Shown: positions 11,073 through 41,358, counted from the stretch's first letter. The stretch is DNA of 64,000 nucleotides from an uncultured virus (IMG/VR IMGVR_UViG_3300031276_000162) (IMGVR_UViG_3300031276_000162); one strand, 5' to 3'. The notes: generated from the sequence alone by a model not told the origin. A program made the numbers and translations.

Positions 11073-11630
11073 GTGAGGTCGCTCCCCGTGCACGCTGCAG
11101 TCGGTCAACTCACCCGCCAACCCCAGGTGCGGTTTGGTCCTTTCGAGGGCCCGGCCACGACCATCGCTACCATGCGCGACAACGTGCGGGGCGAGCGGGG
11201 CGAGCGCAGCCAGCTGTTGCGCAGCGTGACCGAGGACGTGGTGCGCGGGCTCCAGCCCAAGGACTACCTCTCCGAGATCCTCGCCCTGCGCCATTTCGTG
11301 GCCACGCGCTGCCGCTACCTCAACGACCCGCTCACCACGGAGTGGGTGAAGGACCCGCAGCGACTGGCCGAGGAGATCCTCGCGAGCGGTAGCGCGGCGG
11401 CCGACTGTGACGAGATCGCCTCGCTGATCGTCGCCATGGCCCGGCAGTGTGGGCGCGAGGGAGAGTTCATCACGGTGGGCTTCGGGCGCCCGGGCTCGTA
11501 CGTGCATGTGTTTGCGCGCATCAAAGAACCCAAGAGTGGTAAGTGGATCGTGTGCGACCCGGTCGCGGGCGTCGATGAGGCCGGTATGCTTCATCGCGTC
11601 ACGACCTGGAAAGCTTGGCAGGTGGACTGA
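11073..11630 (+). CDS. Transglutaminase-like (Cys-His-Asp) enzyme, candidate maturation protease
   Basis: RYLNDP, ADCDE, VHVF, CDP motifs; first gene of the structural block. Confidence 0.8.
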   Translation: MRSLPVHAAVGQLTRQPQVRFGPFEGPATTIATMRDNVRGERGERSQLLRSVTEDVVRGLQPKDYLSEILALRHFVATRCRYLNDPLTTEWVKDPQRLAEEILASGSAAADCDEIASLIVAMARQCGREGEFITVGFGRPGSYVHVFARIKEPKSGKWIVCDPVAGVDEAGMLHRVTTWKAWQVD

Positions 11631-12145
11631 TGTACGTCTCGACTGACCTGGGCGCAGAGCGCCGCTCCGACATCGGCGGTGGACGGACTCGTGACGAGAC
11701 GCGCTTCGACCCGCTCTTCGGCCGCGGCTGCGACCCCGACGCCATGCCCACGGGCAAGGTGCTGGAGCTGTTGGGGCAGATCGCGGTGCTCGAAGCGCGG
11801 CGGGTGACTAACCGCCTGGACTGCGCCGCCCGCCCCGCTGCCGAGGTCGAGGCGTGTCAGAGCGGCGTGGACTTCAGCCACGACATCGACGTGGCCGCAC
11901 TCGAAAAGCAGATCGCGCAAGTGTGCGCGGCGCGCGAGTTGTGGGGGCCGCAGCAAGCGCCGGACCCGGACGCCGCTGCCGCCGCCGATGCTGCCGCGGC
12001 CGCCGCTGCGGATGCCGATGCTGCGGCGGCCCGCCGCGCCTCGGCCGCGGGGGGCGGGACCAACTGGTGGCTCATCGCGGGCGTGGGGGCGGCGGCGTTG
12101 GTGGGCTGGAAGCTCCTGAGCGGCAGGAAGGGCAAGGCGAGCTAG
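11630..12145 (+). CDS. Tail-anchored putative virion membrane protein
   Basis: MYVSTDLG start; Ala-rich linker; C-terminal TM plus basic tail. Confidence 0.7.
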   Translation: MYVSTDLGAERRSDIGGGRTRDETRFDPLFGRGCDPDAMPTGKVLELLGQIAVLEARRVTNRLDCAARPAAEVEACQSGVDFSHDIDVAALEKQIAQVCAARELWGPQQAPDPDAAAAADAAAAAAADADAAAARRASAAGGGTNWWLIAGVGAAALVGWKLLSGRKGKAS

Positions 12146-12148
12146 CTG

Positions 12149-12889
12149 ATGGCATACGTGCAGGCAGTTGGGCTGGTCGAGCGGGCCGAGCAGGTCAACG
12201 ACATCAACTTCTATGGCGAGGGCTGCGCCCGCGGCAAGTATCCGCCGCGTGAGCAGTATGACGCGCTCAAGCAGATGTACGTCCAGTACCGGATGTGGCA
12301 GACCGAGCGAGCGAAGTGTGCCGCGCTTCCCGCCGCGCAGCGCGCCGGGTGCGAGCAGAACACCCGCCTCGAATTCGAGCGCCGCTGCGCCGGGCCGCTC
12401 ACCCACCTGCAATCGCTGTGCAGTAAACTGCCCACCGACCAGCCCCCCGAGGACATCCGGTGGGAGCGCGGGTGCGCGCCCGGGAGCAAGCTGCCGCCGG
12501 ACGAGCTGCCGCTGGTCAATCAGATCATCGCGCTGGAGCAGCGCCTGGAAGCCGAGATCGCGTTCTGCATGCAAGCCCTCGGCCCGTATGGCCCGACCTG
12601 CCGCGCGGCGGTCGAGCAGCAGCTGCGGCCGCGGATCGACGCCAAGTATGCCGAGCTGGCGGCGCTGTGCGCGAGCAAGGCGCCCGCGCCGGCCGTGCTG
12701 CCGCCGGACGAAATCGAGACGCTGCCGGACGAGGCCGACCTGGCGCCGACCGCGCCGGCAAACGAGCCGGCCGCGCCCGCGAGCCGCGCGTCGGGCGCGG
12801 GCCACGGCGGGCTCTGGCTACTGCTCGGCGCCGCCGCGGCCGGGCTCGTGATCTGGAACCTCGCGCTGAAGAAGGGAGCGCGCGCATGA
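12149..12889 (+). CDS. Cys-rich tail-anchored protein
   Basis: MAYV start; C-terminal TM plus KK. Confidence 0.7.
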   Translation: MAYVQAVGLVERAEQVNDINFYGEGCARGKYPPREQYDALKQMYVQYRMWQTERAKCAALPAAQRAGCEQNTRLEFERRCAGPLTHLQSLCSKLPTDQPPEDIRWERGCAPGSKLPPDELPLVNQIIALEQRLEAEIAFCMQALGPYGPTCRAAVEQQLRPRIDAKYAELAALCASKAPAPAVLPPDEIETLPDEADLAPTAPANEPAAPASRASGAGHGGLWLLLGAAAAGLVIWNLALKKGARA

Positions 12890-13893
12890 CGTACCTGTCG
12901 CTCTACGGGCTCGGTGACACGGAAGACGCTTACCACGTCGCGCTCGAAGACTACATCGCCAACCCGACCCAGCAGACGTACGCCGCCGCGCTCACGGCCT
13001 ACCAGGCTGACCTGGTGACCTGGCAGTCGGAGAAGAACGACGCACTGCTCACGGGCGCCCGTGGCGCGGCCAACTACGCCGAGCGGTTGCGGCGCTACGA
13101 GGTGGCGCTCCAGAAGTACGAGGCCGCCCACGCGCGCTGGGTGAGCGACCAACGCGGCTATCAGCAGGCGCTCAGCGAGTGGACGGCGCTCACCAGCGCC
13201 CGCAGCGCGTGGATGATCAAGCAGGGTACCTGGACTGGGTTGATGAACCAGTACATGGACTGTCAGGACGAGTGGGATGCCTACTGGGAGACGTACAACG
13301 ACGTGCAGCTCAGGCGCAAGAGCATCACCGCGGTCTACGACGCGAGCGCCGCGATGATCCAGCGCGACTGGGGCTGGGCCGGCAAATTGCCCACCGCCCG
13401 GTGCATCAGCGCCGCGCTCAAGGCCCACCAGGCTGCCCTGTGTAGCCAGACCACCCGGTCGGTGGAGCATGTGCGCGGGCTCGACGGGGAGGTGCAGGAG
13501 CCCGGCACGAACACCTACTACGGGACAGACAGCAACGGGGTGCCGTACTGCGCGTCGGCCGCCTTGCCCGTCTGCCAAGCGTGGCCGCAGCTGCCGCCCG
13601 AGCCGCGGCCGTGCGCCCAGCACCCGGGGCCACCGCCGACCGAGCCGCCCCCGGCGGGGAGTAAGCCCACGCCGCCGTCCGCCCCCGAGCCGCAGCCGCC
13701 CGTGCGCCCGCCCCCGGCAGGCAGCGAGGCGGCCACCCGCCCAGCGCCCCAACCGCCCGCGCCGCTCGAACAGCAGCAGGCGGCGAGCGCGGCCGGCGGG
13801 TTCAGTGGCGCCGGGCTACTGCTCGCCGCGCTCGCCGCGGGCGGCGCTTACGTGCTGTACAAGCGGAGCAAGCGGCCGAAGGGAAGCAAGTGA
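12886..13893 (+). CDS. Coiled-coil/Pro-rich tail-anchored protein
   Basis: MTYLSLYGLG; ATGA coupling; C-terminal TM plus KRSKR. Confidence 0.7.
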   Translation: MTYLSLYGLGDTEDAYHVALEDYIANPTQQTYAAALTAYQADLVTWQSEKNDALLTGARGAANYAERLRRYEVALQKYEAAHARWVSDQRGYQQALSEWTALTSARSAWMIKQGTWTGLMNQYMDCQDEWDAYWETYNDVQLRRKSITAVYDASAAMIQRDWGWAGKLPTARCISAALKAHQAALCSQTTRSVEHVRGLDGEVQEPGTNTYYGTDSNGVPYCASAALPVCQAWPQLPPEPRPCAQHPGPPPTEPPPAGSKPTPPSAPEPQPPVRPPPAGSEAATRPAPQPPAPLEQQQAASAAGGFSGAGLLLAALAAGGAYVLYKRSKRPKGSK

Positions 13894-14252: not shown

Positions 14253-14261
14253 GAATCGAGC

Positions 14262-14954
14262 ATGCCGAACTACCCCACCTACCCCAGCCAGCCCTTCACC
14301 GGTAACCTGCCGAGCGCGGCCGCCCTCGGGCCCGAGGATCTGCACCCGTCGTCGGGCACCGCGCCCTACTACCAGGCCCAGATCGATCGCCGCTACACCC
14401 GGGCCCTCGCCGGGCTGGGGAGCGTCGAGGTGCAGGACGAGGGCACCGACCAGGGCTATGCCACCAATGAGCTGAACTACATCGCCGCGCTCGACGACGT
14501 GCAGGGCAACGGGGTGTTCGACCCGCCGGGCACCGAGCCCAACATCCACGGGGATGCGGGGGTGTTCGCAAGCCGCTACGGGCTGCCGGGCTACATGGCG
14601 CGCGAGCGCATGTACGAGCCGAGCGAGGTGGTCGACGCCACCACCGGCCGCCCCGTGGTCTACGTCAACTCGGGCGCGGTGTCGCTCGACAGCGCGGCGC
14701 AGGTAGCGTTCACCGAGCGGGGGCTCTATGCGCCGCCCGACCCGGTCATCCGACAGCAGCAGGCGTACAACGTGCCCGACGTGCCGACCGAGGACGTGAG
14801 CATGCCCGCGTGGCCGGTGGAGGGCGGCCCGACCAACGGGCTCGGACAGGACGAGGGGTGGAGCGCCACCAAGCTGCTGCTGGTGACGGGCGCGGCCGCC
14901 GTCGGGATGGGCGCGCTGTATGCGCTGCTCAAGAAGCGGGGGGCGAGGAGATAG
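14262..14954 (+). CDS. Tail-anchored protein with GLG motifs
   Basis: LAGLG, NGLG, GNGVF; TM plus KKR. Confidence 0.75.
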   Translation: MPNYPTYPSQPFTGNLPSAAALGPEDLHPSSGTAPYYQAQIDRRYTRALAGLGSVEVQDEGTDQGYATNELNYIAALDDVQGNGVFDPPGTEPNIHGDAGVFASRYGLPGYMARERMYEPSEVVDATTGRPVVYVNSGAVSLDSAAQVAFTERGLYAPPDPVIRQQQAYNVPDVPTEDVSMPAWPVEGGPTNGLGQDEGWSATKLLLVTGAAAVGMGALYALLKKRGARR

Positions 14955-14956
14955 CC

Positions 14957-15343
14957 ATGGCGTACGCAGTTGGTGAATACATCCCGGTGCCCAGCGCTTC
15001 GGGTCCCTACCAGGCGGCCGTGGCGGGCCGCCCCGACGGGCTCGGCGCCTACTGGGCCTATCCGCCCCACCTCCGGCACAGCGCGCAGGAGCCCATGCTG
15101 GGCGGCCTCGGCGCTTTCGGCCAGAACCGCGCCCTCAGTGGCACCGGCACGGCCGTCGCCCTGCTCGCCGTGTACGTGGCCCTGTACGGCACGGCGGGCT
15201 ACTACGCGGGCCGGGCGATGAGCCCGACGCCCGCTGGCCAGCGCACCTATGGCACCATCGGCGGGGTCACGAGCGTCATGCTCGGCCCCCTCGCCGCGCT
15301 CGGTCTCGGCGTGCTCGGCGCCGTCGCCCAGGAAGGAAGATAG
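14957..15343 (+). CDS. Two-TM protein with GLG motifs
   Basis: GAGGAG RBS; DGLG, LGGLG. Confidence 0.7.
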   Translation: MAYAVGEYIPVPSASGPYQAAVAGRPDGLGAYWAYPPHLRHSAQEPMLGGLGAFGQNRALSGTGTAVALLAVYVALYGTAGYYAGRAMSPTPAGQRTYGTIGGVTSVMLGPLAALGLGVLGAVAQEGR

Positions 15344-15989: not shown

Positions 15990-16361
15990 ATGCAGATGCC
16001 AATCCAGCCGCCGGGTGTGCCCAACCCTTGGGCGGTGCACGTGCACCCGTACCCGACCCGCTTTCACGGCGGCCGGTGGGGGCGGCCGGAGTTTGGCTAC
16101 CCGGTGGTCAACCGGCCCACCAACATCGACCGCCCCACGCACCTGCGCGGGCTGGGCGAGGTGCAGTACCAGGTGGGCGACGGCGTCTTCCGCTACCCGT
16201 CGTCGGGCGGCGGCGGGGTGTTCAATCGCGCCATCTCGGGCGCCGTCGGCGAGCCCAGCGAGGGCGCGCGCATCGCCGCCTTCGTCGGCGCGCTGGTGGT
16301 GGCCGCGGGCGGCACCTACCTGTTGTTGTCGTATCGACAGAAAGCGAGCCGACGCGCGTAG
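15990..16361 (+). CDS. Tail-anchored protein
   Basis: LRGLG, GDGVF, GGVF; TM plus basic tail. Confidence 0.7.
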   Translation: MQMPIQPPGVPNPWAVHVHPYPTRFHGGRWGRPEFGYPVVNRPTNIDRPTHLRGLGEVQYQVGDGVFRYPSSGGGGVFNRAISGAVGEPSEGARIAAFVGALVVAAGGTYLLLSYRQKASRRA

Positions 16362-17485
16362 TGGCCACCGACGTCATCATCTCCGCGTTCGCGTCCAAGC
16401 GCGAGGCCCAGCCGGTCGAGCAGCTGCGCGATGCGCCCAAGCTCATCGGCGTGGGCGGCATCGGCTCAGACCAGTACCAGGCAAGCTTCGACACGGCGCG
16501 CAAGCCGCGCGAGCCGTGGGGCGGCAAGCCCTTCTCGCGCGAGGCCGAGCGCTACCGCAACAAGGGCGGTGGCTCGATTCTCAAGGGGCTCATCCGCGCG
16601 ATGGCCCCCACCATCGAGCCCCGGCGCATCGCGCTGGTCGGCTTCAGCGCGGGCAACACCTTCCTGTCGCAGATCCTCAAGAACGAGGAGGACGCGGCGC
16701 TGGTCGACGTGGTGCTTGCCATCGACGGGATGACCTACAGCAAGGACTGGAAGGGCAACCCGGTGGGGTTCGATCACTGGGTGCGCTTCGGGATGCGCGC
16801 CGCCGGCGTGAACCGGATGGCGTCGGCGAGCAACCCGTACGGCGGCCCGCTGATGGTGGTGAGCCACACGGACATCGTGAGCGGCGCGCCCAGCAAGGCC
16901 AGCAGCACGGGCGACGCGGCCGCGCACCTGCTCCGCCAGGTGAACGGCCCCTACTGGGATGCGGCCAATCATGTGAGCCAGGACGTGCTGGCCGCGCAGG
17001 GCGCCAAGCAGCAGCAGGTGCTGCAGCGTCTGCGCGCCGCCTCGCGCCAGATCCCCTCGCCGCTGCGCATCCGGGGCGGCAACCCGCCGACCACCAAGAC
17101 GTGGGCCCAGCCGCCCTATCCAGTGGACCAGGGTTACCTCGGCAACCTGTGGACGCTGCGCTGGGGCGGCACGGGCGGCCCGGACCACATCCTGCAGTCG
17201 AACCAGGTGCAGAAGATGCTCTGGGAGACCTACCTGGTGCCCCGCTGGAACTCCCGCAACGAGGACGTGGCGGGGCTCGGCGGCGGCCTCGGCGGCGGGG
17301 GCGGCCCGGTCGCCCACCGGCTCGCGGGGGTGGACTGGACGACGCCGGACGCCACCCAGCCCGGCGGCGGCATCGTGCAGCCCGGCACGCTGGGCGGCCG
17401 GTGGGGCTTCTTTCTGATGCTCGCGGGGGTAGGCGCGGCGGGGCTCTGGGGCGGTAAGAAGCTGATGGAGACGTTGCAGTCATGA
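16361..17485 (+). CDS. Alpha/beta-hydrolase-like protein with C-terminal anchor
   Basis: LVGFSAG nucleophile elbow, IDG, late DH; VAGLG before TM. Confidence 0.6.
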   Translation: MATDVIISAFASKREAQPVEQLRDAPKLIGVGGIGSDQYQASFDTARKPREPWGGKPFSREAERYRNKGGGSILKGLIRAMAPTIEPRRIALVGFSAGNTFLSQILKNEEDAALVDVVLAIDGMTYSKDWKGNPVGFDHWVRFGMRAAGVNRMASASNPYGGPLMVVSHTDIVSGAPSKASSTGDAAAHLLRQVNGPYWDAANHVSQDVLAAQGAKQQQVLQRLRAASRQIPSPLRIRGGNPPTTKTWAQPPYPVDQGYLGNLWTLRWGGTGGPDHILQSNQVQKMLWETYLVPRWNSRNEDVAGLGGGLGGGGGPVAHRLAGVDWTTPDATQPGGGIVQPGTLGGRWGFFLMLAGVGAAGLWGGKKLMETLQS

Positions 17486-17543: not shown

Positions 17544-18602
17544 ATGAGCATGGAAGCGTGGGAGTGGCTGACCCCCTGGGGCACGGCGAAAGCAATCAGC
17601 TCGGCGACCTCCGAGTGGGTGTTTGGCGTCGATCCGGAAACGGGGGCGATCGAGGGCACCGAGCCCCCGAGCGGCGAGCCCGTGACGGCGAGCATCTACG
17701 CGGCCGACTCATCCTCCGTGCTGGAGCGCATCGCCCACCGCTTCGTCGTGGACATCTTGCCCCCCGGCGCGACGTCTCGGCAGCGCGCGGGCTGGCTGGT
17801 GTTCTGGCGCGCGATAGCGATTGGCAACGTCGGCCTGATGCGCAAGATGTACGGCATCGACCCCGACGCGGGCTTCGACGTCACCCGGGGTGCGGCCAAG
17901 ATCCAGAAGCTTGCCGAGGAAAAGGCTGGGACCTGGCAGAGCATCTTCGGCAAGGTGGCCGTGCCGGCGCAGATGTTTGCGGCGCTCCAGGTCGACGGGC
18001 TGCGCAAACTGATCTCCTACACGTTCGGGGCGGTGGAGGCCGGCTGGGGCGCCCACGTCGGCACCAACCCCCAGGCGCTCGTCGACGGCGGGTACATGAC
18101 CCCGTCCCAGCTGACGCGCGACTACTTCCTCCGGCTCGCCGCCTACCAGTGCATGGGCAAGCTGCTCATGAACGAGCACACGAGGTTTCTGATGATCCGC
18201 GAAGGCGGCCCGGTCTCGGGGCTGGGCGCCGCACCGGTCGTCGCCGCGGCGGGCCTCGGGGCGCTGCCGTACGTGGCCGTGGTGGCCGTGGTCATCGGGG
18301 TCTGCCTGCTGGTGGCGACCGTGGCGCACATCGCGGCCAACAACCGCTTGCTGGAGAACGCGCGCATCGACTGCATGCGGCAGTTTGAGCGGACGGGTAA
18401 GGAGAGCAAGCTCTGCGCCACGCTGCCGCAGGCGTTTGCCGCGAGCGCCATGAACACCCCGGCCGCGCAGCTGACCCAGCAGCTCACCAAGTATGGCGTC
18501 ATCGCCGGGGCGGTGGTGCTGGGCATCGTGTTTCTGCCGACCATCATCCGCAGCGTGCGCTCGTCGAGCCAGGCGGCGACGGCGCCGAGGGTAAGCTCAT
18601 GA
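17544..18602 (+). CDS. Membrane protein with GLG motif
   Basis: GGGAGG RBS; VSGLG then two TM helices. Confidence 0.7.
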   Translation: MSMEAWEWLTPWGTAKAISSATSEWVFGVDPETGAIEGTEPPSGEPVTASIYAADSSSVLERIAHRFVVDILPPGATSRQRAGWLVFWRAIAIGNVGLMRKMYGIDPDAGFDVTRGAAKIQKLAEEKAGTWQSIFGKVAVPAQMFAALQVDGLRKLISYTFGAVEAGWGAHVGTNPQALVDGGYMTPSQLTRDYFLRLAAYQCMGKLLMNEHTRFLMIREGGPVSGLGAAPVVAAAGLGALPYVAVVAVVIGVCLLVATVAHIAANNRLLENARIDCMRQFERTGKESKLCATLPQAFAASAMNTPAAQLTQQLTKYGVIAGAVVLGIVFLPTIIRSVRSSSQAATAPRVSS

Positions 18603-21460: not shown

Positions 21461-21462
21461 CC

Positions 21463-22818
21463 ATGGCTGGGCTGGGCGCAACCGGAGTGAGCGAGGTCGA
21501 CGACTTCACTGTAGCGCGCGTGCAGGAGTTGGCGCCCGCCCGCGCTGAGCTGCAAGAGCGCTACGGGCAGTACGAGCCCTACGCCCGCTTCGCCGGCGAC
21601 ATCGGCCCCTCCGTGGCGGCCGGCGACACCGCCGCCATGACCGAGTGGGGCGAGCAGGCGCTGCGGGCCTACGCGAGCGAACAGCTGGGTTTTGATGTGA
21701 ACAACATCAACACCTCGCGCGACATCGTGCGCGCCGCCCAGGGCTACGGTGAGCAGTACCTGAAAGAGAGCTACGGGATCTCGCTCTCGCTGGAGGGTGT
21801 GCGCTTGCAGGATGCCATGCGTGATCTGGCGTACGCGGGCTGCACCTACGCCACCGGCATCAACCCGCAGCTGGCCGAGGTGACCCTCAACGCGCTCTCC
21901 GACGGCAAGCTCACCACGACGGAGTGTGAATCGATCGGCGGCACGGCCGGCGCCATCGCGGGCGCGGCGGTCTGCCAAGCCTTCGGCATCCCCGCGCCCA
22001 TCGGTGCGTGGCTGGGCGGCGCCTTCGGCTCCTCCATCGGCACCATGATCGGTGAGATCACTGGCATGAGCGCCCGCGAGCGCTGGAAGGCCGAGGAGGA
22101 AGCCCGCCACGCCGCGCTGGCCCAGCTCTACGAGTACGGCAACAAGCATTGCAAGACCGCCCGCGCGCGTTACTGGATGACGTTCGACGAGATGCTTGCG
22201 CAGGTGGGCGGCTCCTGGGAGCGGCTGGAGTGCCTGGTGGGCGCGCGGTTTGCGGTGCGCTACTGGGGCCCCTCGCCCCGCCCGACGGGCGCGACCTGCC
22301 GCCATCCGTTCGGTTGCCCCTACCCGCACCGGCACCGCGGCACCGCGGGCCGCTACGAGCGGGTGGCGTCGGCCTACCGGGTGTGGGGTCTGGACTGGCC
22401 CAGCTGCAACGAGCGCGTGATCTGTACGATGCCGCGCTACACGTCGGGGCAGAGCGTGAACAGCTACCGCCAGCAGGTCGAGGCGTGGGTGGGCGGCAAC
22501 GAGTGGCCCTCGCGGGTGGGTATTGCACCGACCTTCGCGCCCTACCAGGCGCGGATGAGAGCGCTCACCGCGACCACCATGCGCATCACCGGGGATCTGA
22601 CCAAGACCGCCTCGGTGGTGCAGACCGAGATGGACATGCACCGGCAGAAAGTGCAGTTGCAGAGCACGGGCAAGACGCAGCAGAGCGCGTACATCGCCGC
22701 GATGCTCGACCGGGCCCGGCTGGTGGGCGAGCGCCGCACGCGCGCGCTCAACTACGGGGCGCTCGCCCTCGGCGGCGCCGGGCTGGGCTACGTGCTGTGG
22801 AAAGGACGGTCCGGATGA
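21463..22818 (+). CDS. Tail-anchored protein with glycine-zipper segment
   Basis: MAGLG start; GGTAGAIAGAA...GAWLGGAFGSSIG; C-terminal TM. Confidence 0.75.
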   Translation: MAGLGATGVSEVDDFTVARVQELAPARAELQERYGQYEPYARFAGDIGPSVAAGDTAAMTEWGEQALRAYASEQLGFDVNNINTSRDIVRAAQGYGEQYLKESYGISLSLEGVRLQDAMRDLAYAGCTYATGINPQLAEVTLNALSDGKLTTTECESIGGTAGAIAGAAVCQAFGIPAPIGAWLGGAFGSSIGTMIGEITGMSARERWKAEEEARHAALAQLYEYGNKHCKTARARYWMTFDEMLAQVGGSWERLECLVGARFAVRYWGPSPRPTGATCRHPFGCPYPHRHRGTAGRYERVASAYRVWGLDWPSCNERVICTMPRYTSGQSVNSYRQQVEAWVGGNEWPSRVGIAPTFAPYQARMRALTATTMRITGDLTKTASVVQTEMDMHRQKVQLQSTGKTQQSAYIAAMLDRARLVGERRTRALNYGALALGGAGLGYVLWKGRSG

Positions 22819-23207: not shown

Positions 23208-23211
23208 GAAG

Positions 23212-32369: not shown

Positions 32370-33122
32370 ATGGCCAAAGTTGTCAGCATGCGCGAGCGCG
32401 TTCACCAGCCGTTCTGGGATTCGCTCATTCGCACGGCGGGACTGACTGCGGGGACTGTCACCGACAGCACCAGTCTGTTCACGTCGAACGCGGCACGCAC
32501 GCAGGCTACGACGAACCTGATCAACGGCAGCACGCTGCCGTCCGACCAGTCCCACGTCGTGCTCGCGCTGCGGTGCTTCGCGTGGTACCGCAACCCCATC
32601 CGCCGGGTGCCCGGTGGTGGCACTGGGGAAGTCGCCGACAACGGCGACTACCTGCTGCTCGCCCCCTGGCTCGTTGGTGGTGCGGCGGTTGGTCAAGCTC
32701 CGGCAACGGTGCAGGACTACTATCGCATCATCTGGCAAACCGAGGAGCAGCTCCACTGGTCCTTCGGCACCGGCCTCAAGAACTCCATCGACAACATGCC
32801 GACCTGGTACTTCCCCGCAGGTGGGGGAATCAGTGGCGACATGGGTGGAACGACGGACCTGATCCACTGGCAGAATTCCGGCACCGACGGCCATTCGGGC
32901 ATCCTGCGCCTCGCGCGCGCGATCCTGATCCCGCCGCGCCAGAACATCCTGTGCAGTGCGACCATCTACGCTCTCCCCGACGGCGGGGCGGCGCAGACGT
33001 TCGGGACCACGCAGGGCAGCCGCAACATGCTGTCGCTCCGAGACAACCTCAACGCGATCGACGCGATGCAGAAGGTCATCACGTTCACGTTCGACGGTCT
33101 GTTCTCGCGAGACGTTCAGTAG
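32370..33122 (+). CDS. Candidate major capsid protein (single jelly-roll-like)
   Basis: Strong RBS, downstream hairpin, 250 aa beta-rich without TM, QPFWDS..LF..TN...G.LP pattern, follows the core-like gene; fold is inferred. Confidence 0.6.
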   Translation: MAKVVSMRERVHQPFWDSLIRTAGLTAGTVTDSTSLFTSNAARTQATTNLINGSTLPSDQSHVVLALRCFAWYRNPIRRVPGGGTGEVADNGDYLLLAPWLVGGAAVGQAPATVQDYYRIIWQTEEQLHWSFGTGLKNSIDNMPTWYFPAGGGISGDMGGTTDLIHWQNSGTDGHSGILRLARAILIPPRQNILCSATIYALPDGGAAQTFGTTQGSRNMLSLRDNLNAIDAMQKVITFTFDGLFSRDVQ

Positions 33123-33256: not shown

Positions 33257-34222
33257 ATGATGACCCAAGTCAACCTTCAAGAACTCGCCCGCCAGGCCAA
33301 TTACGCCGCGCAGGTCGCGCGACAGGCGCAGACCGCGCTCGCGCAGGTCAACGCGGATCACGCCGCGCTGAAACAGGAGCTGCAGAAGCAACAGCAGGGC
33401 AACGAAGCGCTGCGCAATGCCCTCTCGCGCGTCGAGATCCAGAAGCAGGGCGGCGATCCGCACATCCAGCGCATCGAAAACATCCCCGGCGTCCGCGTGC
33501 CGTTCGATCTGTTGGTCGACATCGCGATTGCCGCCGGCAGCACCTCGGTGGTGCAGGGGTCGGTGACGATCCCGCAGGACGGACCGTTCGTGGCGGTGGC
33601 CCGGTATGCCACTCTCCTGTCGTCCTATGCCTTCTCGGTGACTCCGGTGGGCGGCGGCACGGCGGCGAGCTTTCGCGGCCGCAGCTACGGCCGCTACCGC
33701 CCGGTCAGCTCGGTGTGGGATCTTGGTGACTCGGTGCGCGCCAACCAGGTGGCCCAAGTCGGGCTGGCGTTCCCGGGCACCGGCGCCCCCTACATCGTCT
33801 CCCCGGCCAACGCCTCCCCCTTCCGCTCGATGGAAGGCGACTTCCGGATCCGGTTCGAGGCGACTGGCAGCGGCTTCCCGCGCTCCAACCTGGAGGTGCC
33901 CAGCCCGTTCTGGAGCCACGCTATCAACGAGCCCTTTGCGCTCGGGGCGCTTGACTTCTTCGAGCGCGGCAGCGTGCTGCAGTGGCGCGTCGCCCCCACG
34001 CACGAGAACAACCCGCAGTACGGCAACCTGTCGGGCTTCAGCGCCAACCCCAACTACCCGTTCCTCGACTCGGGCTTCGATGCCGTCGAGGGCATCGACG
34101 ACTCGATCCAGGAGCTGGGCTCCCAGACGACCGACCCGGTCATCCGGGTGGCCAACGCAGTGCTCACCATCGGGATGCACGGCTACATCGTCCGCCAGCC
34201 AGCCGGCGCCGGACAATACTAG
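33257..34222 (+). CDS. Candidate second capsid/vertex protein
   Basis: N-terminal coiled coil then beta-rich domain ending LTIGMHGY. Confidence 0.5.
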   Translation: MMTQVNLQELARQANYAAQVARQAQTALAQVNADHAALKQELQKQQQGNEALRNALSRVEIQKQGGDPHIQRIENIPGVRVPFDLLVDIAIAAGSTSVVQGSVTIPQDGPFVAVARYATLLSSYAFSVTPVGGGTAASFRGRSYGRYRPVSSVWDLGDSVRANQVAQVGLAFPGTGAPYIVSPANASPFRSMEGDFRIRFEATGSGFPRSNLEVPSPFWSHAINEPFALGALDFFERGSVLQWRVAPTHENNPQYGNLSGFSANPNYPFLDSGFDAVEGIDDSIQELGSQTTDPVIRVANAVLTIGMHGYIVRQPAGAGQY

Positions 34223-34251: not shown

Positions 34252-35160
34252 ATGGTAGCCTCCTGCCCGAACCCGGTTCAGTCACTCGCGGACGCCTTCG
34301 TCGAAGCGAACCCGCACCTGCAGCAGTCCGGGGGCGCCGCCGATGAGCCCATCACCGAGGGCGGCAGTGTGATGGTGGGCCAGCGCAACCAGGCCCAGCG
34401 CGTGATCCAGGCCGGCGGCATGCTGAGCAGCCTGCTGCTGCACCCCTCCATCACGCCGCTGGAGCAGATCTACCGCAAGCTGCCGCCCGACGGGGTGTTC
34501 GAGGCGACTATCCGCGAGCCGCTGACGTTCACCATCGGGGCGTTCACGGTGCCGCGGGGCCAGAGCTTCGTGCTGGCCGAGTACCGCTTTGACATCTTCC
34601 GCCTCGATGGCTCCGCAGCGGGCAACGCCGTGCTGCTGGAGGAGCGGCGGGTGCCCACCGTCATCGGCTACGATCTGCGGTTCGAGGAGTTCCGCAAGGG
34701 CAACCTCGACTACGAGATCCTGCCCATCAATCCGTCGTTCTCGGACGATCCCTCGTACGGGGGCGTCACCGGCACGGGCATCGATTTCCAGGCCCCGCAG
34801 GTGACGTTCCCCGTGAACTTCGACACCGCGACCCAGCAGCTCTTGCAGACCGTGTACGGTGCGCCGGGCACCGCCCCGGGCGTCGGCGCCCTCAGCGAGT
34901 CGGCGACCAACGAGCAGGGCTCGCGCGTGAGCGCGTCGGGCGCGGGCTCGGCGCTGATCCCGCAGGGGCAGCGGATGCAGGGCCCGAGCCAGTTCCCGTT
35001 CTCGTTCAAGCTCGACGCCAACCAGACGGTACAGCTGTCGGTCACGGCGTTCAGCCCGTGTCGTATCCCGATCGCGTTCTTCGAGACGCGCTTGAGCGGG
35101 TACCTGGTGCCCACCAACGCCATCAAGAAGCTGATGGCGGGAGTGGAGCCGCCATGGTGA
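34252..35160 (+). CDS. Candidate minor capsid/penton-like protein
   Basis: FTVPRGQSFVL, beta-rich, ends RLSGYL. Confidence 0.5.
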   Translation: MVASCPNPVQSLADAFVEANPHLQQSGGAADEPITEGGSVMVGQRNQAQRVIQAGGMLSSLLLHPSITPLEQIYRKLPPDGVFEATIREPLTFTIGAFTVPRGQSFVLAEYRFDIFRLDGSAAGNAVLLEERRVPTVIGYDLRFEEFRKGNLDYEILPINPSFSDDPSYGGVTGTGIDFQAPQVTFPVNFDTATQQLLQTVYGAPGTAPGVGALSESATNEQGSRVSASGAGSALIPQGQRMQGPSQFPFSFKLDANQTVQLSVTAFSPCRIPIAFFETRLSGYLVPTNAIKKLMAGVEPPW

Positions 35161-35338: not shown

Positions 35339-36187
35339 ATGAGCGCTGTGGGTGCGTACTACGCGAGCAACCCAAACTGGCCGGCGTTCGGCCGCGCCGC
35401 TCAGGGGCTCGGCGGCGAGCAGGCCAACTTCGCCAACGAGATCATCACCGAGCTGCTGACCGGGGCGACGCTGGGGCGCTACTCACCGTGGGCCGAGCAG
35501 GTGAGCGACACGACGTGGCAGGAAGTGCCGCGCGAGTGGTGCTACACGCTCTTCCCCATCGACCAGGCGCTGCTCCAGGCGGCCGAGGCGGCCTCGTTCG
35601 GCCACCCGGTGCCGTTCGTGGCGCTGTTGTTTACCCAGCCCGCGACTCTCGAAGCCATCGATCGGGCGCTGCACGGCAGCCGCTACGTGCGCGACATCTC
35701 GCTTGGCATCTACAGTATCGAGCAGCCGGCCGTGGTGCCGCCCGTCCGCTTCCTGGTGCACACGCAGCACCGCGACACCCTGCCGGGCGACGGCGCGGGT
35801 GGCGGCCCGAAGAGCATCGACGCGGTGGCTCAAGAACTGGGCGGTCAGGTAGTGTTCGTGGGGCAGACGCCACTACCTGACGGGGCCCCCCGGCCCGGGG
35901 TGACCTTCCAGGAGGCGCTCGACCTGCAGCTGGGCGTGCCGGGCACGCAGCCCCCGCCCGGTGGCGGGACGGTGCCGGTGGGCCCCCCGCCCGGGGCGGA
36001 GGTCGTGCCCGCGCCGGCGGCCCCGGACTCGGGCGCGGAGCCGGCGAGCCTGGTGGTGGGGACCAAGCCGCGAGCCGATCAAGGTCGAAACGACCTGCTT
36101 GTGCTCGCACTCGTCGGCGCGGCCGCCGCCGGGCTGTTGTGGTGGGCGTCGCGGCGGAAGCAACCATCAACCCAGGCGGCAACCTAG
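35339..36187 (+). CDS. Tail-anchored protein
   Basis: AQGLG, Pro linker, TM plus RRK. Confidence 0.7.
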   Translation: MSAVGAYYASNPNWPAFGRAAQGLGGEQANFANEIITELLTGATLGRYSPWAEQVSDTTWQEVPREWCYTLFPIDQALLQAAEAASFGHPVPFVALLFTQPATLEAIDRALHGSRYVRDISLGIYSIEQPAVVPPVRFLVHTQHRDTLPGDGAGGGPKSIDAVAQELGGQVVFVGQTPLPDGAPRPGVTFQEALDLQLGVPGTQPPPGGGTVPVGPPPGAEVVPAPAAPDSGAEPASLVVGTKPRADQGRNDLLVLALVGAAAAGLLWWASRRKQPSTQAAT

Positions 36188-36315: not shown

Positions 36316-36717
36316 GTGTTTGACGGTGGCGGAACAGGTGGCGTGTTTGGAAGCGCTGGTGGTCTGGGAGACGTGCTGCCCGAGCACGTGCCCACCGAGG
36401 GCTTCGAGGATCTGATGGAGCAGGCCCCGGCGGTGGCGCCGGGTATGCAGCAGGCCGCCGCCGGCATGGGCCAGGTGCCGGCCTATCGCCCGCCGCGCGA
36501 GGTGCCGCGCCGCCAGCCCGCGCCGCAGATGCCAATGATGCCGCCGGGCGCGCCCCAGCAGGCCGCCGCCGGCATGGGCGCTTTCCAGGTGCCGGTGGGC
36601 GCCACCGGCGGCGGGACGAGCGGTGGGGCGCTCACGGCAGCGTTTCTGGGTGGCGTGCTGGTAGCCGGGGTGGGCTACGGCGCCTACCGGATCTGGCAGA
36701 ACCGCAACGGAGAGTGA
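36316..36717 (+). CDS. Tail-anchored protein with QQAAAGMG repeats
   Basis: AGGAGG RBS; shares QQAAAGMG with the 30067 protein. Confidence 0.75.
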   Translation: MFDGGGTGGVFGSAGGLGDVLPEHVPTEGFEDLMEQAPAVAPGMQQAAAGMGQVPAYRPPREVPRRQPAPQMPMMPPGAPQQAAAGMGAFQVPVGATGGGTSGGALTAAFLGGVLVAGVGYGAYRIWQNRNGE

Positions 36718-36720: not shown

Positions 36721-36933
36721 GTGCGGGGTCTGTCAGCCACCGACGTACTGGCCATCGCCGAGGCCACCCGGCGCTTGGGGGTGAGTCCCGCCGGGCTGGC
36801 GGGCCGGCTCGCCGGGCTCGGCGCGGGGGAGCAGAAGCTCGTGCCGCCGTGGGGCTGGTACGGCGCTGCGGCCGTGCTCGGGATCGGGGTAGGCGTGGCG
36901 GTGGTGCGGTGGGCGGCGCCTCGTCTGAGCTAG
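36721..36933 (+). CDS. Small tail-anchored protein
   Basis: LAGLG then TM. Confidence 0.6.
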   Translation: MRGLSATDVLAIAEATRRLGVSPAGLAGRLAGLGAGEQKLVPPWGWYGAAAVLGIGVGVAVVRWAAPRLS

Positions 36934-37588: not shown

Positions 37589-37594
37589 CAAGCC

Positions 37595-37867: not shown

Positions 37868-37877
37868 GAGACCGCGC

Positions 37878-38108
37878 ATGTACTTGGGCAACATAGGATC
37901 AGGTCCGGGTCGTTCGTACCGTGACGGCTCCCTGGGAGCTTCGACGCAGACGGGCGCTGGGCGGCAGTACCGTGACGGCTCGCTCGGGCTGTTCGAGATC
38001 GGCGGCGACTTCATCGTGGGCGCGGCGCTCGGCACCATCGGGGTCTGGCTGCTGATGCGCGGGCTGACGCTGCCGGGCACGAAGTCCGCCGCCGCGGCTG
38101 CCAGGTAG
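37878..38108 (+). CDS. DGSLG-repeat tail-anchored protein 3
   Basis: YRDGSLG twice; AGGAG RBS. Confidence 0.75.
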   Translation: MYLGNIGSGPGRSYRDGSLGASTQTGAGRQYRDGSLGLFEIGGDFIVGAALGTIGVWLLMRGLTLPGTKSAAAAAR

Positions 38109-38117
38109 GCGCCGCCG

Positions 38118-38387: not shown

Positions 38388-38463
38388 CCCGCCGCCCCGC
38401 CCACCCCATGCGTAGCGGGTCCGATGCTGGCCGTCTGGCCGCAGCGGGTGGTAGTCTGAACCC

Positions 38464-39105: not shown

Positions 39106-39116
39106 GAGCGCGAGCG

Positions 39117-39503: not shown

Positions 39504-39516
39504 AGGAAACACCAAC

Positions 39517-39927: not shown

Positions 39928-39948
39928 TGGCGCCGCAGAGGTAATGCC

Positions 39949-40746
39949 ATGCTGATCGACGAGAAAGCGCTGTACGACGAACTGGTGGACGCGGGCCTGC
40001 TGCCCGACGTGCCCTACAACGCCGCGAGCACGCAGGAGCTGGCCGCCGTCCGGCGCGTGGTGGCGGGCCTGAACGCGCCGCTGGTGCGCACCGCCACCCA
40101 GATCTACGACAAGCTGGAGCGGCTCTCCGCTGAGCAGAAGCCCTACCTGCGCAGGGTGGGCTACGCTAGCGTGTACATCGTGGGCACCATCTACAAGGGT
40201 GTGCCCGGCCGGCAGTACACGATCAAGCACACCGATGCGTGGAAGTCGCCCCAGATGCCGTGGGCGCTGCAATGGAACGCCGTGCTGGGTGAAGAGGGTC
40301 AAGACGAGGTCGTGACCGGTCAGGATGCGCTGCTCGATCTGGGCAACACCTTTCCGCAGGACTGGGAGAGCGGCTCGGACACGCCCGAGGAGGCGATGGA
40401 GGAGTTGCGCCGCAACATGATCCATCAGATCGAGCGCGAGTCTAAAACCAGTGTCATGCAGACCCTGCTCAAAACGGTGGAGCGGCTGGCGCCGTTCGAC
40501 ATTCCCCGGGTGTGCCTCATCGGCGAGAGCATGGGCGGCCCCTTCGAGTGGCGCGTGGTGGCTGGCGATGTGGTCGAGAGCGAGCAGGAGGCCGAGCAGA
40601 AAGGGGCGTGGGTGACCGCGACGGAGCGCGAGGTCGGGATCGGGTTTATGGATCCTCACGAGAGCCCCGGCGACGCGATTGCGGCCTTTGGGGAGTCGGT
40701 TCAGAACATCCCCGCTTACACCTTGCCCAAGAAGCACAAGAGGTAG
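39949..40746 (+). CDS. Hypothetical protein
   Basis: GAGGT RBS; coding-like. Confidence 0.75.
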   Translation: MLIDEKALYDELVDAGLLPDVPYNAASTQELAAVRRVVAGLNAPLVRTATQIYDKLERLSAEQKPYLRRVGYASVYIVGTIYKGVPGRQYTIKHTDAWKSPQMPWALQWNAVLGEEGQDEVVTGQDALLDLGNTFPQDWESGSDTPEEAMEELRRNMIHQIERESKTSVMQTLLKTVERLAPFDIPRVCLIGESMGGPFEWRVVAGDVVESEQEAEQKGAWVTATEREVGIGFMDPHESPGDAIAAFGESVQNIPAYTLPKKHKR

Positions 40747-40749
40747 AAC

Positions 40750-41358
40750 GTGTACGTCGCACTCGGACAAGAGGCCCAGCAAAACGGCGAAGCCGCCCCG
40801 CCCCCCGTCGGACCCTACCCGGTCCGCGCCGGCCGCGACTCGCCGGACCACAGCTACCCGTACTACCGGTGGGCGCCGCCGCTGCCGTTCAACTCGCCGC
40901 TGTGGAGCGCGAGCAAGGCGTGGGGTCGCTTTCCGTGCGGTCCAGCGTATCAGGCGCCCCCGGGCGAGAACTGCCCCAGCTGTTTCAATGGGCTCGGTGC
41001 CTACTACGCGGCCCGCCCGAACTGGCCCACCGCGCTGGGCGCTGACGCGACCCCGGCCGAGCTGGAAGCGTGGGCGCTTAACCATCTTCCAGCGTGCTAC
41101 TCGGACGGATTCCACCAGTGCTTCGTCAACGAGCATCTCGACGCCTACCCGAGCTGCAAGCGGTTCGTGGACGCCTACCATGTGGGCGGCGACACCGGCC
41201 CCGTGAACCAGGCCGTCCGGAAGATCCCGTACTGCCCGGAGCCCGCGGCGCGCATGAGCGAGGCATCGCTGATGTCGGGCCCCGTGGGGCTGGCGGTTGC
41301 GGCCGTGGTGGGCGCTGCGGTAGGCTGGATGGCCGGCAAGGCATCTAGCAAAGGCTGA
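40750..41358 (+). CDS. Tail-anchored Cys-rich protein
   Basis: MYVALG, FNGLG, TM. Confidence 0.7.
   Translation: MYVALGQEAQQNGEAAPPPVGPYPVRAGRDSPDHSYPYYRWAPPLPFNSPLWSASKAWGRFPCGPAYQAPPGENCPSCFNGLGAYYAARPNWPTALGADATPAELEAWALNHLPACYSDGFHQCFVNEHLDAYPSCKRFVDAYHVGGDTGPVNQAVRKIPYCPEPAARMSEASLMSGPVGLAVAAVVGAAVGWMAGKASSKG

Follow-up and report, generated by a model that had tools for sequence, protein, structure and literature searches.

The locus examined here raises the question of why so many otherwise dissimilar proteins share one very short glycine-containing motif. The window, i.e., the whole 64,000-nucleotide stretch of DNA from an uncultured virus (IMGVR_UViG_3300031276_000162) that was analysed, carries a block of particle genes headed by a gene for an enzyme with a transglutaminase core (Table 1). 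The initial annotation had listed a recurrent pentapeptide, [LIVMF]xG[LMF]G, in this block and likened it to the cleavage consensus of adenain, proposing either adenovirus-like maturation in a bacterial membrane-containing virus or an assembly docking motif. As set out below, the window belongs to an undescribed viral family in which the same tiny Gly-Leu/Met-Gly tag is found on many unrelated particle proteins. Genes are referred to by their start coordinates.

Table 1. Features of the particle-gene block and positions of the tags
Coordinates	Strand	Product	Tags and other details
11073..11630	+	Transglutaminase-core Cys-His-Asp enzyme	First particle-block gene; Pfam PF01841
12886..13893	+	Tail-anchored protein	N-terminal tag MTYLSLY-GLG-DTEDAY; LYGLG at nt 12901
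14262..14954	+	Tail-anchored protein	Residues 51 (LAGLG, nt 14406) and 193 (~10 residues ahead of anchor)
14957..15343	+	Small membrane protein	Residues 28 (GLGAYWAYPP) and 50 (LGGLG, nt 15098)
15990..16361	+	Tail-anchored protein	LRGLG-EVQY at nt 16143; L001 orthologue keeps tag (IAGLGD-Y)
16361..17485	+	374-aa protein	VAGLGGGLG at nt 17267, ~45 residues before weak C-terminal anchor
17544..18602	+	Membrane protein	VSGLG (nt 18213) and AAGLG immediately ahead of first TM helix
19656..20123	+	Two-tag protein	MSGLG nt 19722, LLGLG nt 19821
21463..22818	+	451-aa protein starting M-A-GLG	MAGLG at nt 21463
27404..28204	+	Papain (C1)-like peptidase	Pfam PF00112, E 1.4e-4; phrog_16701 'peptidase', E 8e-10
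30067..32082	+	Core-type protein with C-terminal tag array	e.g. QQAAAGMGEYFRQPVAGMGEYF
32370..33122	+	Candidate small major capsid protein, single jelly roll	
33257..34222	+	Candidate second capsid protein, N-terminal long helix and jelly roll	
34252..35160	+	Third conserved capsid-block protein	Window copy without tag
35339..36187	+	Tail-anchored protein	AQGLGGEQ at residue 23; six orthologues keep -LG
36316..36717	+	Tail-anchored protein	Three tags: GGLGDVLP, QQAAAGMGQVPAY, QQAAAGMGAFQVP
36721..36933	+	70-aa tail-anchored protein	LAGLG nt 36808, 12 residues before anchor
37019-37588	+	Small protein, paralogue of next	FSGLG nt 37493, immediately N-terminal of C-terminal anchor
37595-37867	+	Small protein, paralogue of preceding	MAGLG nt 37772, immediately N-terminal of C-terminal anchor
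40750..41358	+	Tail-anchored Cys-rich protein	FNGLG-AYYAARPNWP at nt 40984

All 16 pentapeptide types originally listed were located on the + strand, in frames with coding-type GC3. The counting set comprised 48 + strand genes (9,967 aa, 11.0-42.4 kb of the window), including three carriers missed by naive longest-ORF calling and re-called (12886, 14957, and 15990). The pentapeptide occurs 20 times in 14 of these genes, compared with 3.5 +/- 1.9 instances and 3.4 genes expected from per-protein shuffling, either observed value being reached in 0/1000 shuffles. When shuffling was confined to blocks of 30, 20, 12, or 8 residues, 4.4-4.9 instances were expected and 20 was again reached in 0/1000. 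The remaining 31 window proteins showed no enrichment (1 instance versus 1.4 expected). Among block genes, the control tripeptides were flat (observed versus shuffled: LGG, 13 versus 9.2; GGL, 7 versus 9.3; GAG, 13 versus 14.7), and neither GVG (9 versus 7.9) nor GIG (5 versus 3.2) was enriched. Furthermore, G[LMF]G appears 45 times in the coding frame versus 2-19 times in the five other frames, and the 40 G[LM]G instances are spelled by 19 different 9-mers, so that the signal lies at the protein level.

These counts bear on one explanation, namely, that the motif has no shared function and reflects Gly-rich, high-GC composition, glycine-zipper helices, or recent duplication of a few genes. 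Gly and Leu are indeed common in these proteins, certain GLG sit inside the C-terminal anchors of relatives, and the tandem repeats of gene 30067 account for 6 of the 20 instances. However, with gene 30067 and three glycosyltransferase paralogues removed, the pentapeptide still occurs 14 times in 13/44 genes against 4.0 expected (0/1000), just 6 of 54 G[LMFV]G lie within predicted transmembrane (TM) segments, and beyond the tag no carrier can be aligned with another, cross-matches being confined to orthologues. Composition is thus not sufficient to account for the GLG frequency, and this reading, largely refuted by the controls, retains hardly any probability; the motif is a genuine signal under selection, restricted to the particle-gene block. 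Outside particle blocks, the tripeptide is slightly depleted (20 versus 29.7; 33/1000 shuffles as low), as is GLG (10 versus 18.4; 21/1000), with control tripeptides undepleted there, as expected if stray tags were harmful, in what is a weak test (p about 0.02-0.03, uncorrected).

The constrained part of the motif is G-[L/M]-G, the central residue being Leu in 69%, Met in 20%, and Phe in 11% of cases; this tolerance, together with the lack of GVG and GIG enrichment, points to a defined side-chain pocket. Small residues usually precede the tripeptide, and Ala, Glu, Gln, or Asp, then Tyr, Phe, or Pro follow (Tyr 16% at +4, Phe 12% at +5). The first 30 residues, which make up 12.6% of all residues, contain 61 of the 193 non-TM instances in the window and relatives, and several leaders span no more than 2-4 residues (MA-GLG, MMS-GLG, MYA-GLG). 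A tail anchor preceded by the motif is found in 13 of the 18 carriers, and in 11 of these 13 the tail that follows the anchor is net-basic. Protein starts are also conserved as M-[S/T]-Y, yielding a composite N-terminal leader, M-[S/T]-Y...G-[LM]-G: Tyr occupies residue 2 or 3 in 9/48 block proteins (3.0 expected) and in 26/129 from seven other loci (7.8 expected), compared with 0/31 and 5/135 outside blocks. The Tyr/Phe after the tag and the M-[S/T]-Y start suggest that both flanks of the tripeptide contribute binding energy.

In several orthologue sets, the tag is conserved at aligned positions. All six sequences covering the N-terminus of the 21463 protein (the window and five orthologues) keep the GLG, behind leaders of 2-20 residues and within unalignable flanks, the N-terminal part being absent from relative L003; this protein bears a weak Pfam likeness to the P22 ejection protein gp7 (E 4e-4, below cut-off). 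Both tags of gene 19656 are retained in the L001 orthologue, and the second is shortened to -LG in L004 and L006, while orthologues of 34252 in L002, L004, and L005 carry 1-2 GLG tags within a Pro-rich N-terminal tail. The tag of gene 20135 is not kept in its orthologues. In the 30067 protein, ~370 hyper-basic residues (40% K+R) and a hydrophobic segment (414-458) precede a C-terminal array in which the G-[LMFV]-G unit occurs 10 times (nt 31270-31896), with pentapeptides VTGLG (31270), MTGFG (31516), VAGLG (31558 and 31882), and VAGMG (31849). Six orthologues retain arrays of about 5-10 units, and the unit A-A-G-[LM]-G-[EQ]-[YF]-[FY] is maintained despite copy-number turnover, with tags 10-15 residues apart.

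The enzyme heading the block, a soluble protein of ~180 aa with 309 homologues found, matches PF01841 at 30.8 bits (cut-off 23), and its triad (C107, H140, and D157) is conserved without exception across 36 homologues and in 6/6 genomes. In the relatives for which identity was measured, it is 55-58%; overall, the enzyme is conserved to the same degree as 33257 (55-72% versus 36-68% identity), with 32370 higher and the putative substrates diverging fast. A sequence search for a solved relative gave none at E<=1. The enzyme is a candidate reader or cutter of the tag. The papain-like peptidase 27404 was ruled out as a family-wide partner, since it was found in 1 of 5 relatives searched. By contrast, the enzyme is present, at the head of the block, in 8/8 related viral contigs of 61-140 kb, all of which are enriched in G[LMF]G (17-32 versus 5.0-9.3 expected; 0-1/300 shuffles), bearing out the proposed co-occurrence of the transglutaminase-like gene with the motif. 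In a complete 138-kb relative, 28 of 49 tag instances fall in the 20 kb after the enzyme gene. A complete relative encodes SLT and amidase lysins, identifying the element as a bacterial virus; the membrane that had also been proposed is probable, given the many tail-anchored proteins and the two adjacent proteins modelled closest to the single jelly-roll capsid protein of SPV1.

Could the enzyme be a true transglutaminase, with the tag marking Gln donors through which core or membrane proteins are covalently cross-linked to the shell? Pfam places it in the transglutaminase core, and tags are often preceded by Gln (QQAAAG[LM]G), which is enriched at -4 (13%, +1.7 log2). This preference is nevertheless limited to the arrays, its main source, and gene 36316; most single tags have no Gln nearby, and most bacterial PF01841 proteins are, to our knowledge, not known cross-linkers. 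We therefore consider cross-linking very improbable.

A search of 50,697 phage records for the enzyme matched the cultured phage SSIP-1 alone, the family profile spanning the catalytic Cys and His of the distant homologue gp34 (E 1e-12, 57-protein search). According to PMC6356626 and PMC4958249, SSIP-1 has no tail, contains a membrane, and has capsid proteins of two types. It differs from the window family in its circular 44-kb genome of 57% GC, compared with 125-140 kb, terminal repeats, and 65-69% GC, and in that gp34, annotated as a structural protein, is 304 aa long with its own membrane anchor. It nonetheless combines the enzyme homologue with the same, albeit milder, tag enrichment: in the late block, G[LMF]G occurs 13 times versus 6.3 (12/1000) and the pentapeptide 6 times versus 1.5 (4/1000), while early genes show no enrichment of the tag (2 versus 2.5 expected). 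Small late proteins, two of which (gp37 and gp53) are annotated as structural, carry the tag at a distance of 17-34 residues from the N-terminus, and the gp34 tag, RARGMGEP, stands between catalytic domain and anchor, as a self-releasing protease would carry it. No other protein convincingly links SSIP-1 to the family (four other phmmer rows, E 7e-4 to 2e-3). We know of no discussion of the tag or the enzyme for SSIP-1. P23-77, the one negative-control phage, has a membrane, two jelly-roll capsid proteins, and 68% GC; it has no enzyme homologue and no pentapeptide (0 versus 2.3 expected), and its tripeptide rises no more than the LGG or GGL control. That enrichment is missing from this high-GC phage and from the rest of the window but present in SSIP-1 further argues against a compositional origin. 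Moreover, enzyme and tag travel together, in 8/8 relatives and down to SSIP-1, and are both lacking from P23-77, which, along with the invariant triad of an enzyme conserved while its putative substrates diverge, argues for reading of the tag by the enzyme.

The shell itself offers another potential reader. For the 32370 protein, 684 homologues were found, of which the top 120 share 70-86% identity. When its AF2 model (pLDDT 62.5) was compared with 48,161 chains, the SPV1 capsid protein 6oj0 scored best (Z 7.0, rmsd 4.0, 130 aligned), a match that is no more than suggestive, with Z below 8. The model of 33257 (404 homologues; pLDDT 60.5) likewise matches 6oj0 best (Z 7.4, rmsd 3.5, 126 aligned), followed by capsid proteins of EhV-201, PBCV-1, HCIV-1, and STIV (Z 6.1-6.6), with the Orf virus D13 orthologue among the rows (Z 6.2); Foldseek with this model gave no match at E<=0.001. 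The models are thus suggestive of two jelly-roll capsid proteins. In such a shell, the tag might be a short linear motif serving as an uncut docking peg, which would fit membrane and core proteins into a putative pocket on the inner face of the jelly-roll capsid lattice or on a cementing protein, selecting proteins into the particle and tying DNA, membrane, and shell together; the repeats of the lattice would let the core-protein arrays bind by avidity. We regard docking as nearly as likely as cutting. It agrees with the exposed, mostly N-terminal or juxtamembrane, ectodomain-side position of the tags, with arrays that change copy number yet keep their unit, with the aromatics after the tripeptide, with leaders too short for meaningful trimming, and with the extreme conservation of 32370, as expected of a shared docking surface. 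On the other hand, P23-77 has the same capsid architecture without the tag, which is therefore not general to this kind of lattice; between the family and SSIP-1, the tag persists while detectable sequence similarity is kept by the enzyme only and not by a capsid protein; and docking leaves the conserved Cys enzyme at the head of the block unexplained.

A precedent for docking comes from poxviruses, in which, as described in PMC8971458, a tail of the membrane protein A17 binds a Phe-rich pocket of the jelly-roll protein D13 and is later cut, releasing the lattice. The poxvirus system differs from the window family in its eukaryotic host, its one main substrate versus dozens, and its protease of a different clan. 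The poxvirus protease site type is AG-X, cut after the glycine, and this type is unenriched here (AG[ASTK], 33 versus 36.3 expected). By analogy, the tag might do both, docking membrane proteins to the lattice and then being cut by the Cys enzyme, which would free or rearrange the shell. Such a sequence of events would draw on the evidence for docking and cutting alike and fits the composite leader, but requires two putative interactions instead of one, and appears unlikely. Short terminal peptides also load unrelated proteins into a shell in the case of the phage T4 capsid-targeting sequence, a leader removed by the prohead protease, and of encapsulin cargo-loading peptides; these differ in sequence and serve HK97-type shells without a membrane, whereas many tags of the window family are internal or arrayed.

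With adenovirus, the likeness is one of logic: one virion-packaged cysteine enzyme, one short Gly-containing consensus, and many precursors (pVI, pVII, pVIII, pIIIa, pX, and pTP, covering capsid, cement, and core), a basic DNA-condensing core protein being among the carriers in both. One adenain site, IVGL-G (cut at the hyphen), has the exact shape of the pentapeptide, according to PMC4246237. Beyond that site, the suggested resemblance is formal: the full consensus is unenriched ([MIL]xG[^LMF]G, 12 versus 13.3 expected; [MIL]xGGx, 21 versus 15.5, reached by 99/1000 shuffles), and the P4 hydrophobic residue is optional in the window family, where Met, Ile, or Leu stands at P4 in 26% of 193 instances and the tripeptide with other residues at P4 is itself enriched (35 versus 12.5; 0/1000). 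Pfam adenain (Peptidase_C5) found no match among 74 window proteins or 145 proteins of one complete relative, and the family further differs from adenovirus in the transglutaminase core of the candidate enzyme, the bacterial host, the mostly tail-anchored carriers, and the tandem arrays. A transglutaminase fold is shared by the bacterial LapG-type cysteine proteinases, site-specific proteases acting at a small-residue motif, although the corresponding BTLCP Pfam match was absent for the window enzyme, two homologues, and SSIP-1 gp34, even at E<=5.

Collectively, our preferred, if tentative, reading, to which we assign a probability of roughly 40%, is that the transglutaminase-fold Cys enzyme reads the tag and probably cuts it. 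Against cutting, arrays of 5-10 tags resemble motifs for multivalent binding more than they do protease sites, and trimming leaders of 2-4 residues would achieve little; belonging to the transglutaminase-core superfamily is no proof of peptidase activity, and a papain-fold enzyme carried in the virion can also be a hydrolase of the cell wall. A preference for a hydrophobic P2 is typical of papain-fold enzymes, and the enzyme would bind the Leu/Met between the two glycines in a hydrophobic pocket. The tag would be the core of a family-wide particle-protein signal, displayed on the exposed, non-anchor side of tail-anchored proteins and, in tandem, on the C-terminal tail of the presumed DNA-condensing core protein. 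In these viruses, which are probably large, tailless, membrane-containing viruses of bacteria, cutting at or beside the tag during particle maturation would trim off short leaders at the N-terminus, separate ectodomains from their anchors, and break the link between core protein and shell.

A short sequence tag with the core G-[LMF]-G, mainly G-[L/M]-G, recurs in the particle block on the + strand of the window far more often than composition predicts. In the curated gene set on which our motif counts rest (48 + strand genes, 9,967 aa, 11.0-42.4 kb), 14 genes carry the motif proposed in the initial annotation, [LIVMF]xG[LMF]G, with 20 instances in all, whereas shuffling yields 3.5 +/- 1.9 instances in 3.4 genes (0/1000 shuffles reach the observed values). 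All 16 pentapeptide types listed there are present in frames with coding-type GC3, three of them in genes that need re-calling. Within the block, GLG is found 30 times (9.3 expected) and G[LMF]G[ASDE] 26 times (3.9 expected), and the control tripeptides are flat (LGG 13 vs 9.2, GGL 7 vs 9.3, GAG 13 vs 14.7, GVG 9 vs 7.9, GIG 5 vs 3.2). The 31 window proteins encoded outside the block hold a single instance of the motif, with 1.4 expected. The coding frame holds 45 copies of G[LMF]G, against 2-19 in each of the remaining five. Forty instances draw on 19 different 9-mers, and predicted membrane helices contain just 6 of the 54 G[LMFV]G instances. Gly-rich, high-GC composition, named initially as the explanation that could undo the motif, does not account for it: shuffles confined to blocks of 30 down to 8 residues yield 4.4-4.9 instances (0/1000). 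With the repeat-rich gene 30067, which encodes a basic core-type protein, and the glycosyltransferase paralogues left out, 13 of 44 genes still carry 14 instances, where 4.0 are expected (0/1000). That the tag is an artefact we consider extremely improbable. The GMGF of the three glycosyltransferase paralogues was considered as a further instance and set aside as an internal family motif, and it is excluded from the stricter counts.

A profile of 193 instances outside membrane helices, taken from the window and its relatives, concentrates its information in the tripeptide G-[L 69%, M 20%, F 11%]-G. Flanking preferences are mild: A or S tends to precede the core, +3 favors A, E, Q or D, Y takes +4 in 16%, and +5 favors F or P. 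The instances gather near protein starts: 61 of the 193 fall within the first 30 positions and 94 within the first 60, stretches that account for 12.6% and 25% of all residues, respectively. C-terminal anchors are predicted in 25 of the 45 scored block proteins (48 minus the three glycosyltransferase paralogues). Among the window carriers of the tag, 13 of 18 are tail-anchored; in 11 of these 13 the tail beyond the anchor is net-basic, and all 13 carry the tag N-terminal to the anchor. Proteins of the block (11615-42304) and of the related IMG/VR loci L001-L008 often begin M-[S/T/A]-Y or M-Y. Tyr occupies residue 2 or 3 in 9 of the 48 block proteins of the window, where 3.0 would be expected; the figure for seven other loci is 26 of 129 (7.8 expected), and outside the blocks it is 0/31 and 5/135. 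This N-terminal Tyr signature may be the first motif reported in the initial annotation, and together with the tag it forms composite leaders such as M-T-Y-R-S-M-T-GLG. Three small tandem paralogues carry [FY]-[KR]-D-G-[SA]-L-G...Q-T-G-[PA]-G-R repeats ahead of a C-terminal anchor, and in locus L005 a repeat unit of this type is fused with the tag as S-D-G-S-L-GLG. In L002-L007, GLG also recurs within C-terminal anchors before the basic tail (...A-V-GLG-A-W-L-L-R-R, ...L-Y-GLG-A-V-A...), a second setting for this tripeptide, here embedded in the membrane.

Protein 33257, one of two candidate capsid proteins, led to eight relatives (36-54% identity) on IMG/VR contigs of 61-140 kb, with terminal repeats in three of the five records that report their ends. 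G[LMF]G is enriched in all eight loci, with 17-32 instances where 5.0-9.3 are expected (0-1/300 shuffles reach the count), and the longer motif in seven (0-1/300), L008 giving 11/300. The LGG or GGL control is flat in six loci and somewhat high in L007 (12 vs 5.5, 6/300) and L003 (39/300). In the complete relative (138,414 bp), 28 of 49 instances lie at 80-100 kb, in the stretch that directly follows the gene of the transglutaminase-like protein and surrounds the candidate capsid genes, at a density of ~5.4 per 1000 aa compared with ~0.8 elsewhere; its block alone holds 32 instances against 9.3 (0/1000). The tag is retained at aligned positions in several orthologue sets whose flanks cannot be aligned. 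In the 21463 family, all six aligned sequences that include the N-terminus carry it, behind leaders of 2-20 residues; orthologues also retain the tag of 15990, both sites of 19656 and an -LG core in 35339, and those of 20135 do not retain it. In six orthologues of 30067 the tag forms a C-terminal array of about 5-10 units, varying in copy number. Judged from sequence comparison, the tag is a family trait.

The other end of protein 30067 has a different character. Its first ~370 residues consist of ~40% Lys+Arg in long near-perfect repeats (RRNAPKRR...KGWRKRK), resembling protamine or an adenovirus core protein, and the orthologues hold 23-40% K+R across the first 55% of their length.

The tandem arrays and very short leaders, the aromatic residues that follow the core together with the conserved N-terminal start, and the position of the tag on the ectodomain side all favor a reading in which the tag would serve as a docking peg that is left uncut. 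We regard this as possible, though tentative, and as close to the reading that we put first, in which the tag would be cut by an enzyme encoded in the same block.

The gene of this enzyme, the first of the block, encodes a transglutaminase-core Cys-His-Asp protein that scores 30.8 bits against PF01841 (cut-off 23 bits; 42.7 and 28.3 for two homologues). Its 309 homologues are mostly ~177 aa long and 55-72% identical, and some are labelled "transglutaminase-like putative cysteine protease" by their source. All 36 sequences compared share C107, H140 and D157, and DCD...HVF...D[PT]V is found in six of six genomes. The expected co-occurrence of this gene with the motif holds throughout, as the gene is present in all eight relatives whose loci are enriched in the core. 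The profile of the family, compared with solved structures, gave a best match of only E 0.099. Membership in LapG/BTLCP was rejected on sequence profiles, four proteins giving no BTLCP match at E<=5. The weak papain-C1-like peptidase of the block was likewise discarded as a partner of the tag, being found in only one of five relatives; its own N-terminal YGLGW is probably a family sequence. Cross-linking of tagged proteins by the enzyme, as a transglutaminase, appears very unlikely to us.

Features with coordinates in the window and in SSIP-1
Feature	Position (nt)	Basis or content
DnaC-like loader and DnaB helicase	354-2791	Pfam/PHROG
Transglutaminase-core protein (+ strand)	11073-11630	Pfam/PHROG
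Three tandem GT2 glycosyltransferases and methyltransferase	23.2-26.2 kb (23146-26247)	Pfam/PHROG
Weak papain-C1-like peptidase	27404-28204	Pfam/PHROG
Basic part of protein 30067	30067-31180	Lys+Arg-rich repeats
Three small tandem paralogues	37019-38108	repeats ahead of C-terminal anchor
DnaJ-domain protein	38464-39105	Pfam/PHROG
ArdA, formyltransferase, few others		Pfam/PHROG
SSIP-1 gp34	21296-22210 (SSIP-1, L022)	transglutaminase core, tagged linker, anchor

The gene content of the window offers few other landmarks (see table). Its G+C is 60-72%, nearly all coding signal lies on the + strand, and most of the 74 scanned proteins match neither Pfam nor PHROG families. The capsid block has no match in 50,697 phage records by blastn or tblastn. 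The DnaJ-domain gene lies inside the particle block and is kept in all eight relatives. The glycosyltransferase and methyltransferase group has a GC3 of 0.73-0.83 vs ~0.9 in its neighbors and breaks up the particle block, and may therefore be a later insertion.

What kind of virus carries the tag is indicated by a three-gene core (32370, 33257 and 34252) conserved in all relatives, with 684 metagenomic homologues for 32370 and 404 for 33257. AlphaFold models of these two proteins are of middling confidence (pLDDT 62.5 and 60.5, respectively). Among 48,161 chains, both independently find as best match 6oj0, the single jelly-roll capsid protein of SPV1, a virus that contains a membrane, 32370 with Z 7.0 (rmsd 4.0, 130 aligned) and 33257 with Z 7.4 (rmsd 3.5, 126 aligned), values below 8, which can reflect a common arrangement. 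Further matches of 33257 are capsid proteins of EhV-201, PBCV-1, HCIV-1 and STIV and the D13 orthologue of Orf virus (Z 6.1-6.6), and Foldseek against the PDB returned nothing for this model at E<=0.001. Since Z stays below 8 and Foldseek gave no match, the models are suggestive, not proof, of single jelly-roll capsid proteins. Pfam profiles for terminase, portal, HK97 capsid and tail proteins have no match in the window or in the complete relative (145 of 165 proteins); the same is true of an FtsK/HerA-type packaging ATPase, a family whose divergent members could be missed. The complete relative also has no Pfam-recognizable DNA polymerase, and encodes Cpn10, two DnaJ-domain proteins, a classical AAA ATPase, a 1279-aa integrase-domain protein and a collagen-repeat protein. 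Its SLT and amidase lysins, found among the same 145 of 165 called proteins, show its host to be a bacterium. The candidate capsid gene also occurs on five MAG contigs, one of them 122,730 bp long, with inconsistent labels (two Pirellulales, one each Pseudomonadales, Pseudomonadota and Gemmatimonadota); the contigs probably represent entire viral genomes that were wrongly binned with bacterial MAGs. One homologue is named Gemmatimonadales.

Adenoviruses, poxviruses and African swine fever virus characteristically mature by means of one packaged protease that cuts at consensus sites, and the initial annotation likened the motif to the consensus of the adenovirus protease, adenain. The formal resemblance is real: according to the review PMC4246237, adenain sites include IVGL-G in pVI, and QRGF-G is listed as non-consensus. 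The likeness does not extend to the consensus as a whole, which is not enriched. The sites do not follow (M/I/L)XGX-G or (M/I/L)XGG-X: [MIL]xG[^LMF]G occurs 12 times vs 13.3 expected and [MIL]xGGx 21 times vs 15.5 (99/1000 shuffles), and the core preceded by a residue other than M, I or L at P4, the motif's "hydrophobic" position, is itself enriched (35 vs 12.5, 0/1000). Across the 193 instances, Ala fills P4 in 24% of cases; the share of M/I/L is 26%, rising to 40% when V and F are counted as well. No Peptidase_C5 domain (adenain, MEROPS C5) is matched among the 74 window proteins at E<=0.01 or among 145 of 165 called proteins of the complete relative at E<=1e-4.

The family also has a link to a cultured virus. 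Among 50,697 phage records, the only match of the enzyme is gp34 of phage SSIP-1 (E 0.01), which is annotated as a structural protein and passes PF01841 at 29.6 bits; searched against 57 proteins, the profile of the enzyme family finds gp34 at E 1e-12, and the match spans 135 positions, the catalytic Cys and His among them. Gp34 consists of a transglutaminase core, a linker with a tag of its own, RARGMGEP, and a C-terminal membrane anchor; by contrast, the enzyme of the window family is soluble and ~180 aa long. According to reviews, SSIP-1 is a tailless membrane-containing phage with two types of capsid protein, of the vertical single beta-barrel group (PMC6356626, PMC6260650, PMC4958249). 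Other SSIP-1 proteins gave no convincing match to the window or the complete relative, four further phmmer rows having E 7e-4 to 2e-3. In the late block of SSIP-1 (genomic GC 57%), G[LMF]G occurs 13 times vs 6.3 (12/1000) and the longer motif six times vs 1.5 (4/1000), compared with two vs 2.5 expected in the early genes. Its instances belong to small late proteins and lie 17-34 residues in from the N-terminus; two of these proteins, gp37 and gp53, are annotated as structural. Thermus phage P23-77, which is built alike and has 68% GC but lacks an enzyme homologue, served as a negative control: it holds no instance of the longer motif against 2.3 expected, and its increase in the core is no greater than that of the LGG or GGL control.

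From the window family to SSIP-1, enzyme and tag thus occur together with nothing else recognizably shared, which we count in favor of cutting. The absence of the tag from the enzyme-less P23-77 and the site within gp34 itself argue in the same direction, as does a mild depletion of the core outside particle blocks (20 vs 29.7, 33/1000 as low; GLG 10 vs 18.4, 21/1000). The preference for Leu and Met over Val and Ile suggests a side-chain pocket. On these sequence patterns, our leading reading, at a probability of about 0.4, is that the enzyme would read the tag on particle proteins and cut there. Docking and cutting need not exclude each other, as illustrated by the poxvirus membrane protein A17: it docks into a pocket of D13, a lattice protein with a jelly-roll fold, and its later processing releases D13 (PMC8971458). 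A two-step scheme overlapping both single readings, in which the tag would first peg the core protein that condenses the DNA, along with dozens of membrane proteins, to a single-jelly-roll capsid lattice before a virion-packaged transglutaminase-fold protease cuts and frees the shell, is in our estimate rather unlikely. It would be a bacterial counterpart to adenovirus and poxvirus maturation, with an unrelated enzyme. With enzyme and tag both present in the cultured SSIP-1, the question of what the tag does is open to bench test now.

One packaged cysteine enzyme acting with a short consensus on many particle proteins, or a targeting peptide shared among them, is a known principle; what is new here are the enzyme family, the tag, the putative membrane-protein substrates and the host domain. 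Our literature search found no description of the GLG motif in virions, and among the papers listed none covers a transglutaminase-fold virion maturation protease, this virus group, or consensus-site maturation by a packaged protease in tailless membrane-containing phages. Collectively, the results bring into view a virus family that is large, widespread and still lacking annotation (309-684 metagenomic homologues of core genes) with a simple code marking its particle proteins, and under any reading the tag is a practical predictor of virion proteins in dark-matter genomes. Should the two-step scheme be true, protease-driven maturation of membrane-lined jelly-roll particles would be ancient, or would have evolved repeatedly.
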